Assembly: GCA_029263215.1 (NCBI GenBank)
Contig: JAJCXY010000108.1
Span: forward strand, 2,135 to 66,134
Source of the DNA: Acidimicrobiales bacterium
GTDB lineage: Bacteria; Actinomycetota; Acidimicrobiia; Acidimicrobiales; Aldehydirespiratoraceae
DNA: 64,000 nt
Reading direction: 5' to 3'
Shown here one piece after another: positions 2,618 to 6,911 of the stretch (position 1 is its first letter; every line of letters starts with the position of its first letter). The notes under the pieces are model-generated. The model saw only the letters and a program-made list of their open reading frames with translations, was not told the DNA's origin and searched no databases. The translations under genes and the position numbers were made by a program.

Positions 2618-3610
2618 TCAGGTTGGCGCCGCGCCGGCTCCGGCCCGCCACGGATCAGGCAGTTCGACGATCGCCTGCTCGTCCCGTTCGAGGAGCGAAA
2701 GCGCGGCGAGAACGACGCTGCGCTGGCGTTCGCTGTCGCCGGGGGCGCCGAGCGGACGGCCCATCGGATGCTTGGTGATCGCGGCCCTCGCGACACCCAT
2801 GAGTTCGGGGATGTGGCCGAAGCTGCGTACGTAGACCCCGACGGTGGGGATCCCGATCGACTCGATTGCTCGCTGGACGTGTCCGACCGACACGTGGCAG
2901 ACGGGTCAAACGGGCACCAGCAGGACTGCGTCGACTCCATCATCGCGGAGTTGCTCGGCCCACTCGGGCGCGTTCTTCTTACGCAGCCTCACCTGGGAGG
3001 TGGCGCCGACGAACGAGTAGGCGGTTGGCGCGAGTCCACCGATGACGCCGTCATTTGCCAGCGCCGTCATGTGTTCGAGAGGTAAGGCGACCTGGTGATC
3101 GGCCGCCACCGAAGCGATCGGGTAGCCGCCGTGTCGCACTCTCAGCTGAGAGGGCGGCGTATCTACCGGCACAGCGGATATCGAAGGTGCCGCGCTGAGG
3201 AACTCGCCGATTCGCGCCTCCGCCTCGGCCTGGGTCATGTCTTCGACGTCGAACGGTCGTGGGTCGTCGCCCTCGACAAAATGTCCGCTCGACGTGAGCA
3301 GGGCAACGGTGCACTCCGAGAGCGGCTTGCCGAGGCTGGCGAGCGGCGTGTCGTCGTGGCGGTGGGGGAAGTCGGCGGGGTCTCCGAGATGACCCACATA
3401 CGACTCGAGTTGCCAGCGGTAGGCGGCATCGATCACCCGATCGGCGTTGCCGTCATCGGTGGTCGCGGCAATGGCGGCCAGTAGTTCCTCGAGAAACGCC
3501 CCGAACTCGTCGTCGCTGAGGCCCTTGATGAACTTGAAGTTGAGGTTGCTTCGTGAGCCGTAGGCGAACGACTGGCGAAGCTGCTCGATGGTTTCGGGTT
3601 GCTTGTTCAC
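2618..3610 (-). CDS. glycine/sarcosine/betaine reductase selenoprotein B (GrdB) family protein, predicted selenoprotein (Sec = TGA at complement 2906..2908)
   Basis: The C-terminal part of ORF 2906..4237 (...GVDAVLLVPV) and ORF 2618..2893 are in the same frame and separated only by TGA-CCC-GTC-TGC-CAC. The read-through product is ...LLVPV-U-PVCHVSVGHVQRAIESIGIPTVGVYVRS...HPMGRPLGAPGDSERQRSVVLAALSLLE, which is GrdB-family-like. The likely start is GTG at 3610 (VNKQPETIEQL), 23 nt after the upstream stop. Confidence 0.75.
2877..2895 (-). promoter_or_regulatory. candidate bacterial SECIS hairpin downstream of UGA 2908..2906
   Basis: Minus-strand RNA is UGA CCCGUCUGCC ACGUGUC GGUCG GACACGU. This gives a perfect 7-bp stem starting 10 nt after the UGA, with an apical GGUC beginning 17 nt after the UGA. 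Confidence 0.55.
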
Positions 3611-5966: not shown

Positions 5967-6304
5967 TAGTTCGACCTGGCCGCAGAGCTGGCGATTGCTG
6001 CAATGGCAACGACCACCAAGATGCCCCATGCGAGATAGCGAAACCATTGCGGCGCGAATCGCCAGAGATTCCTGACCTGGGCCCAAACAGCGGCAGCACC
6101 GAACAGCAGGCCGGCACCCAGCCCGCCGACAGCAGCCACAACACGAAATGCTTCATCGCCGGTGGACCCGTCGTCGGGGTCGGCTATGCCGAGCACCAGT
6201 CCGGCCAGCGCCGCCACCAGGGTCGCAGTGGAAGCCAGCGTGATCAGGATCCAGAAGCGGCGGAGCTCGCGTGCGTCAGCTTCGGACCGGTCGGTGTAGT
6301 CCAT
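5966..6304 (-). CDS. small integral membrane protein (hypothetical)
   Basis: 112-aa ORF with three hydrophobic spans (FWILITLASTATLVAALAGLVLG, VVAAVGGLGAGLLFGAAAVWA, LAWGILVVVAIAAIA). Confidence 0.6.
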   Translation of the reverse strand: MDYTDRSEADARELRRFWILITLASTATLVAALAGLVLGIADPDDGSTGDEAFRVVAAVGGLGAGLLFGAAAVWAQVRNLWRFAPQWFRYLAWGILVVVAIAAIASSAARSN

Positions 6305-6911
6305 GAATCTACGACACTACTTCGTCGTAGCTGCCCAAGAGCTCGCATTGCCCGCCTTGGACGGGGTCTGCTTCGATGGGGGAGTGGGAGAGAGCGAGAT
6401 CACCGCGGAGACCAAGGTCGCCACCTTGCTGAACGAACACCCCGAGGTCGAGGACCTGCTCATTTCCATGGCTCCTGCATTCATCAAGCTCCGCAACCCG
6501 GTCCTGCGGCGAAGCGTCGGTCGGGTTGCAACCCTGACCCAGGCCGCGGCGGTCGGAAAGATCGAAGTAGCCGAACTGGTGAACGAGTTGCGTGTCGCGG
6601 TGGGTCAAGCGCCGCTAGATAACATCGGACTCGCCGACGAGGTCGAGTACTTCGGGCCGGCACCGGAATGGTTCGATGAGGGCGCGATCGTGAAGGTTCT
6701 ACACGAGCAGGACCTCGATCCGGATGTGATGCCGATCAATCCGCTCCTTCGGGCGGTGCGTGATCTGGGTGATGGCGAGACCGCTGAACTTGTGACCGAG
6801 CATCTGCCGGCGCCTGGCATCGACATCCTTCGCCGCAAGGGTTACGCGGTGTGGTCGACCGAGCATGTCGGGCTCATCCGCACCTTCGTAGCTCGATCTC
6901 CACTCGGTTGA
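6303..6911 (+). CDS. DUF1858/DUF2249-like domain protein
   Basis: ITAETKVATLLNEHPEVEDLLISMAP...LRNPVLRRSVGRVATL is DUF1858-like. LDPDVMPINPLLRAVRDLGDGETAELVTEHLPAPGIDILRRKGY is DUF2249/TusA-like. The start is uncertain; an alternative GTG lies near 6384. Confidence 0.55.
   Translation: MNLRHYFVVAAQELALPALDGVCFDGGVGESEITAETKVATLLNEHPEVEDLLISMAPAFIKLRNPVLRRSVGRVATLTQAAAVGKIEVAELVNELRVAVGQAPLDNIGLADEVEYFGPAPEWFDEGAIVKVLHEQDLDPDVMPINPLLRAVRDLGDGETAELVTEHLPAPGIDILRRKGYAVWSTEHVGLIRTFVARSPLG

Follow-up and report, generated by a model that had tools for sequence, protein, structure and literature searches.

The window (the whole 64,000-nt stretch of DNA analysed here) encodes on its minus strand a GrdB/PrdB-like protein whose reading frame is interrupted by a UGA at codon 235, in the context LLVPV-U-PVCHVSVGHVQRA. 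The UGA falls within a U-P-V-C motif; U-x-x-C is the motif listed for GrdB and PrdB, and the position is that of their known selenocysteine (Sec) (PMC13188914). A short hairpin, the candidate Sec insertion element (SECIS) that is the subject of this analysis, follows the UGA inside the coding sequence. The features of the locus are as follows.

2618..3610, minus strand: GrdB/PrdB-like selenoprotein gene, 330 codons, with GTG start at 3610, terminal TGA at 2620..2618 and Sec codon 235
2906..2908, minus strand: in-frame UGA, codon 235, predicted to be read as selenocysteine (the U of U-P-V-C)
2896..2905, minus strand: 10-nt spacer from the UGA to the base of the stem, CCCGUCUGCC
2897..2899, minus strand: TGC codon within the spacer, the resolving Cys of UxxC; its T and G are invariant alignment columns
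2889..2895, minus strand: 5' arm of the putative SECIS stem, ACGUGUC
2884..2888, minus strand: apical loop GGUCG, 5 nt, with GU at loop positions 2-3 as the presumed SelB contact
2877..2883, minus strand: 3' arm of the putative SECIS stem, GACACGU

The protein matches the Pfam GRDB family (PF07355; 50.8 bits against a cut-off of 22), and its best NCBIfam match is PrdB (TIGR04483), at 114.2 bits and below the cut-off of 300. Close homologues are named ‘selenoprotein B family protein’ or ‘PrdB’ by NCBI and JGI. With PrdB (D-proline reductase) and GrdB/GrdF/GrdH (selenoprotein B of glycine, sarcosine and betaine reductase) of Clostridia, and with marine PrdB-like proteins, it has in common the GRDB fold region and a UxxC Sec at the homologous position. 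It differs from the clostridial PrdB and GrdB proteins in scoring below both the PrdB equivalog cut-off and that of the TIGR01918 subfamily (49.1 against 65.45), in having about 85 additional residues at its N-terminus, and in its host, which is represented by an Acidimicrobiia genome rather than a Stickland fermenter. The Sargasso Sea survey had already found PrdB-like selenoproteins in abundance, with 42 genes (PMC1088965). The public call for the window gene ends at the UGA and gives 234 aa (2906-3610, minus strand), and nearly all public calls across the family (proteins P0002-P0121) likewise end at the Sec UGA, at residue 233-256. The window protein thereby loses its last 95 residues, among them the conserved HPMGRPLGAPGD region, and databases lack the C-terminal third of this protein.

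Two neighbouring genes were also considered. A creatininase-family gene (PF02633; 3637-4404, minus strand) precedes the selenoprotein gene in the same orientation and ends 23 nt before it. We rejected an operon of the two, given that no creatininase-family gene lies within ±3 kb of 19 orthologues and the pairing is thus not conserved. The gene at 6303-6908 (plus strand) encodes a DUF1858-domain protein, a family that includes selenoproteins; as no CxxC or CxxU motif and no in-frame TGA was found in it, we regard it as ordinary.

A hairpin at a fixed distance from the UGA

Around the site the minus strand reads ...CUG GUG CCC GUU UGA CCC GUC UGC CAC GUG UCG GUC GGA CAC GUC CAG... The original prediction had described a perfect 7-bp stem beginning 10 nt after the UGA, with a GGUC apical loop at 17 nt, and had proposed that the region be folded. 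The description was accurate: all seven pairs are Watson-Crick, the stem has no bulge, the spacer is 10 nt and the loop begins 17 nt past the UGA. The minimum free energy (MFE) structure computed with ViennaRNA contains the hairpin, at −9.7 kcal/mol for its 19 nt alone and within −15.1 kcal/mol for the UGA plus 45 nt. As a single-sequence fold it is not exceptional. Folded over 63 nt, the region has z = −0.42 relative to dinucleotide shuffles, a weak value that is uninformative because the DNA is very GC-rich, and a comparable hairpin follows 22 of the 1,761 TGA triplets in the window (1.2%). In isolation the hairpin stands out only moderately, and its significance therefore rests on comparison with homologues.

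Rfam SECIS families belong to the same functional class as the window element; none matched when the whole window was scanned at gathering thresholds or when the surrounding 181 nt were scanned at E ≤ 10, and the scans returned two chance hits only. We also considered a lower helix pairing the spacer UGC with the CAG past the hairpin, and rejected it because RNAalifold omits it and its third-position partners do not covary.

The UGA itself is widely retained. All 19 full-length Acidimicrobiia orthologues (61-78% identity) have TGA at the Sec position and an identical PVCHVSVGHVQRA peptide. In a sample of 401 Actinomycetota genomes, homologues were found in 76 (about one fifth), nearly all with one in-frame TGA and five without. 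The set was extended with homologues from Rubrobacteraceae and, outside the phylum, from Chloroflexi, Desulfobacterales, Nitrospinaceae and Tectomicrobia. One Rubrobacteraceae homologue (G422:C148:1646-2305, plus strand) has a single in-frame TAG and no TGA. An alignment of 13 divergent homologues contained no usable conserved stretch.

In total, 123 distinct TGA homologues from at least five phyla carry the hairpin at the same position. All seven pairs form in 106 of them (86%) and at least six in 117 (95%), and the loop has GU at its second and third positions (NGUNN) in 122 (99%). The alignment (A1) is gapless from the UGA to +45, so that the spacer length and the 17-nt distance to the loop are invariant, whereas the stem itself occurs as 21 distinct sequence pairs, such as ACGUGUC/GACACGU, ACGGGUC/GACUCGU, AUCAAUC/GAUUGAU, GCCGGUC/GACUGGC, AGCAGUC/GACUGCU and GUCGCGC/GCGCGAU. 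The original prediction had called for covariation preserving the stem in TGA orthologues, and this is what the alignment contains. Run without guidance on 51 Sec homologues, RNAalifold predicted exactly this seven-pair stem, with compensatory double changes in six of the seven pairs. Paired cells amount to 95.4%, a value that none of 500 shuffles attained (71.3 ± 1.7%; these statistics ignore phylogeny). When partners were slid along the alignment with relatedness kept, only 23-42% were paired. The covariation score of the stem is 0.593 versus 0.162.

RNA and protein constraint on the same codons

The element lies in coding sequence and so also shapes the peptide, which raises the alternative that the causation runs the other way: the hairpin may be a by-product of protein constraint, with the codons for HVSVGHV happening to be self-complementary and Sec insertion, if any, proceeding independently of the hairpin. 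In the clade of the window, the stem is indeed largely dictated by the invariant HVSVGHV peptide. Of the 14 bases in the stem, ten occupy the first or second position of codons whose residues do not vary in this clade, so that an RNA-level signal is visible there only at synonymous sites; moreover, the pairing baseline in shuffles is already 71%.

Those synonymous sites obey the stem, in keeping with the suggestion in the original prediction that the hairpin is an additional constraint on codon choice. In 20 close orthologues, Val+5 (counted from the Sec) is GTG in every case, compared with 41% GTG gene-wide, and it is the sole column without codon variation among nine invariant-Val columns. 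Similarly, Gly+8 uses only GGA or GGG, against a gene-wide usage in which GGC and GGT make up 71% of Gly codons, and it is the sole one of 12 invariant-Gly columns without GGC or GGT. Thus, at positions that are free at the protein level, the codons kept are those that preserve the stem, contrary to prevailing codon usage. By contrast with the stem, third positions in the loop vary freely (TCG/TCC/TCA and GTC/GTG/GTT). In the stem, the third base of Gly+8 faces the first base of codon +6, and family-wide it tracks this partner in 112 of 113 sequences, as itemized here.

U-A: 35 sequences
U-G: 64 sequences
G-C: 10 sequences
G-U: 1 sequence
A-U: 2 sequences
mismatch: 1 sequence

Beyond the clade of the window, the peptide varies while the pairing stays. 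Residues +5 and +9 covary as reverse-complement codons (V-H, Q-L, R-L and G-L), as do residues +4 and +10 (H-V, N-I, Q-L, C-A and T-L). These exchanges, together with the 21 stem variants, are not what a by-product of a fixed peptide would give.

Homologues with Cys in place of Sec bear on the same question. The set is a small sample of 15 sequences with TGC or TGT from several lineages, in which the number of paired positions is seven in one sequence, six in six, five in three, four in four and two in one. All seven pairs thus form in 7% of Cys homologues, the mean of 72% paired equals the shuffle baseline, and the difference from Sec homologues is marked (Mann-Whitney p = 7e-13; n = 15 Cys, phylogeny ignored). 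The loop GU, which is supplied by Val+7 (GUN), is present in 8 of the 15 (53%) versus 122 of the 123 Sec sequences, Val+7 being replaced by Ile, Met, Thr or Ser in Cys homologues. The locus L058 illustrates the decay: its peptide is about the same as that of its Sec sisters (CTRTV-C-TL versus CTRTV-S-TL), and it is written as ACC CGC ACC GTC TGC ACC where the sisters have ACG CGT ACC GTG AGT ACG, with the preferred codons ACC/CGC/ACC rather than ACG/CGU/ACG and only two of seven pairs in the stem. A search for relatives starting from this Cys protein gave one locus (L161), which has no usable site.

The close Cys orthologues behave differently from the rest, and favour the by-product explanation. 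P0110, P0117 and P0122 keep HVS[V/I]GHV and six or seven of the seven pairs, from which it follows that the peptide is also constrained at the protein level. The original prediction had expected the stem to be lost in orthologues with Cys codons, and had named retention of the same hairpin in such orthologues as the sign of a purely protein-coding constraint. Loss holds for 14 of the 15, which are not fully paired, and is accompanied by the fall of the loop GU to 53%; the expectation fails for one sequence alone, L163 (P0117; Logan contig SRR15101028_1299895, gene 1127-2113), which has TGC at the Sec position, the peptide HVSVGHV and all seven pairs in AUGUGUC-CGUUG-GACACGU. Full pairing here could mean that Sec gave way to Cys only recently, in which case the hairpin would be a ‘fossil’ SECIS, or it could have arisen by chance, for which codon usage gives a probability of about 8%. 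The other two close relatives are further from the intact element, with six of seven pairs each, L162 having GGC and CAU and L165 having Ile and one mismatch. Taken with the return of Cys homologues to the baseline, the covarying codons and the behaviour of Val+5 and Gly+8 make a by-product of protein constraint improbable.

One further homologue, L164 (Logan contig SRR20069368_597230, gene 1501-2646), carries a Trp codon, TGG, in place of the Sec codon (codon 288). Its hairpin is intact with seven of seven pairs, and a change of His+9 to Arg preserves a U-G pair. The TGG may be a sequencing error, or an inactivating or tolerated TGA-to-TGG mutant.

Selenocysteine machinery and the SECIS reading

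The genome, an Acidimicrobiia-type assembly of 131 contigs that is 94.8% complete, encodes the complete machinery for Sec. A tRNA-Sec was detected with Rfam (64 bits) and called as SeC with anticodon tca by ARAGORN. The genes selA and selB are adjacent, and SelB has the C-terminal winged-helix domain (PF09107, SelB-wing_3; 54 bits). The selD gene (G000:C18:50460-51386, plus strand; locus L158) itself has an in-frame TGA at about position 1530, in the context G-U-G-C-K. This UGA is followed after 26 nt by a 6-bp hairpin, GGCGCA-GGUCG-UGCGCC, placing the loop 32 nt from the UGA; its GGUCG pentaloop is the same as that of the window element.

A second GrdB/PrdB-like paralogue in this genome (L054; G000:C21:22893-23570, plus strand; 33% identity) has an in-frame TGA in the context U-P-D-C-C. 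Its hairpin is shifted, with a 16-nt spacer and six of seven pairs in ACGUGCC-CGUGUU-GGCCCGU, and a relative of this paralogue (L066) has a perfect hairpin, ACGUGCC-CGUGCU-GGCACGU.

The hairpin agrees with the published model for bacterial SECIS elements (bSECIS; Zhang and Gladyshev, bSECISearch), in which a stem of 4-16 bp carries a loop of 3-9 nt whose first two nucleotides include at least one G, with G or U usually coming next, the loop lies 16-37 nt from the UGA and the MFE is at most −7.5 kcal/mol (PMC13188914, Fig. 2). The corresponding values here are 7 bp, 5 nt, a GGU loop start, 17 nt and −9.7 kcal/mol, and the 16-37-nt spacing that the original prediction had given is the published range (PMC13188914). 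In addition, the stem-loop stands immediately 3' of an in-frame Sec UGA and inside a coding region, the host encodes tRNA-Sec, SelA, SelD and SelB with its winged-helix domain, and the structure covaries in Sec homologues and is relaxed in Cys homologues, with the exception of L163. Nothing in the element differs from the model, within which it occupies the short-spacing, short-stem end.

A second known system for comparison is the SECIS of Escherichia coli fdhF. The original prediction had stated that this element presents GGUC about 18 nt after its UGA, and this was correct: a pattern of TGA, 18 nt and GGTC gave a 100% match under fdhF in 5,419 E. coli genomes. The GGUC loop motif is therefore common to both elements, at 17 nt after the UGA here and 18 nt in fdhF. 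They differ in that the upper stem in the window lacks the bulged U, that the window loop is one nucleotide longer (5 nt against 4 nt), and that RNAalifold predicts no conserved lower helix with the UGA in it, whereas the fdhF type is a two-helix structure of about 40 nt; the host protein family and phylum also differ. In E. coli, the loop GU is the contact for SelB, and the minimal SECIS is the upper hairpin, at about 11 nt from the UGA compared with 10 nt in the window.

We considered whether the conserved element could be a signal of another kind, either a protein-binding palindrome at the DNA level or an RNA signal for pausing, stability or attenuation that is unrelated to recoding of the UGA. 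In the window, ACGTGTC...GACACGT is a perfect DNA palindrome that contains CACGTG, and its tie to SelB is drawn by analogy. However, G-U pairs are frequent among the homologues (ACCGGUC/GGCUGGU occurs in 44 sequences), and these would be A-C mismatches on the opposite strand, which places the constraint on the sense RNA and not on duplex DNA. The element is also confined to a fixed spacing downstream of the Sec UGA, decays when this codon becomes Cys, and has a loop that matches those of the selD hairpin of the same genome and of E. coli fdhF; we consider such a signal to be less probable still than a by-product of the peptide. Least probable of all is genuine termination at the TGA, or a pseudogene or assembly error, with the downstream frame untranslated: public calls do end at residue 234 and the homologue L164 has TGG at the site, but the TGA is kept in 123 distinct homologues, amino acid conservation runs uninterrupted across it from LLVPV-U-PVCHVSVGHV to HPMGRPLGAPGD, Cys homologues align gaplessly through the position, where the UxxC motif of GrdB and PrdB has its known Sec (PMC13188914), and the genome has the Sec machinery.

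We therefore read the hairpin at 2877..2895 (minus strand) as very probably the bacterial SECIS of a GrdB/PrdB-like selenoprotein mRNA, and place the probability of this reading at roughly 0.9 on sequence evidence. By analogy with the E. coli (fdhF) and Moorella systems, which supply the model for SelB binding to the loop, for Sec insertion and for the geometry on the ribosome, the element would act as follows. With the UGA (2908..2906) in the ribosomal A site, the 7-bp stem, 10 nt downstream, would sit at the mRNA entrance, as the spacer is short and fixed. The GGUCG loop, with GU at its positions 2-3, would be presented to the C-terminal winged-helix domain of SelB, and the SelB-GTP-Sec-tRNA(Sec) complex tethered in this way would deliver selenocysteine in place of termination by release factor 2. 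Translation would then run on through 95 further codons and end at the real stop, 2620..2618. This mechanism is the textbook bacterial one, and nothing here challenges it; the locus adds one ordinary case to those known, with a well-supported SECIS call.

What the protein does is a separate matter. Searches for the partner subunits PrdA/GrdE (PF09338) and GrdA (PF04723) had no match in the 94.8%-complete genome and likewise none in the control genomes, so that the PrdB-like selenoprotein looks orphan in a search that had no positive control. It is conceivable, although we hold it doubtful, that the SECIS has written part of the active-site loop of an orphan PrdB-like selenoenzyme family, in which the residues concerned would become free only after replacement of Sec by Cys. 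If true, this would imply a reductase chemistry that is not yet described.

A family-specific description of the SECIS (10-nt spacer, 7-bp stem and NGUNN loop) would let annotators call these genes correctly. The 123 Sec and 15 Cys sequences, with 21 stem variants, form a clean natural case of RNA structure shaping protein, in which the structure constrains both synonymous sites and the choice of amino acids inside an active-site loop. The value of the finding thus lies in the correction of annotation and in an example of RNA structure imprinting protein sequence.
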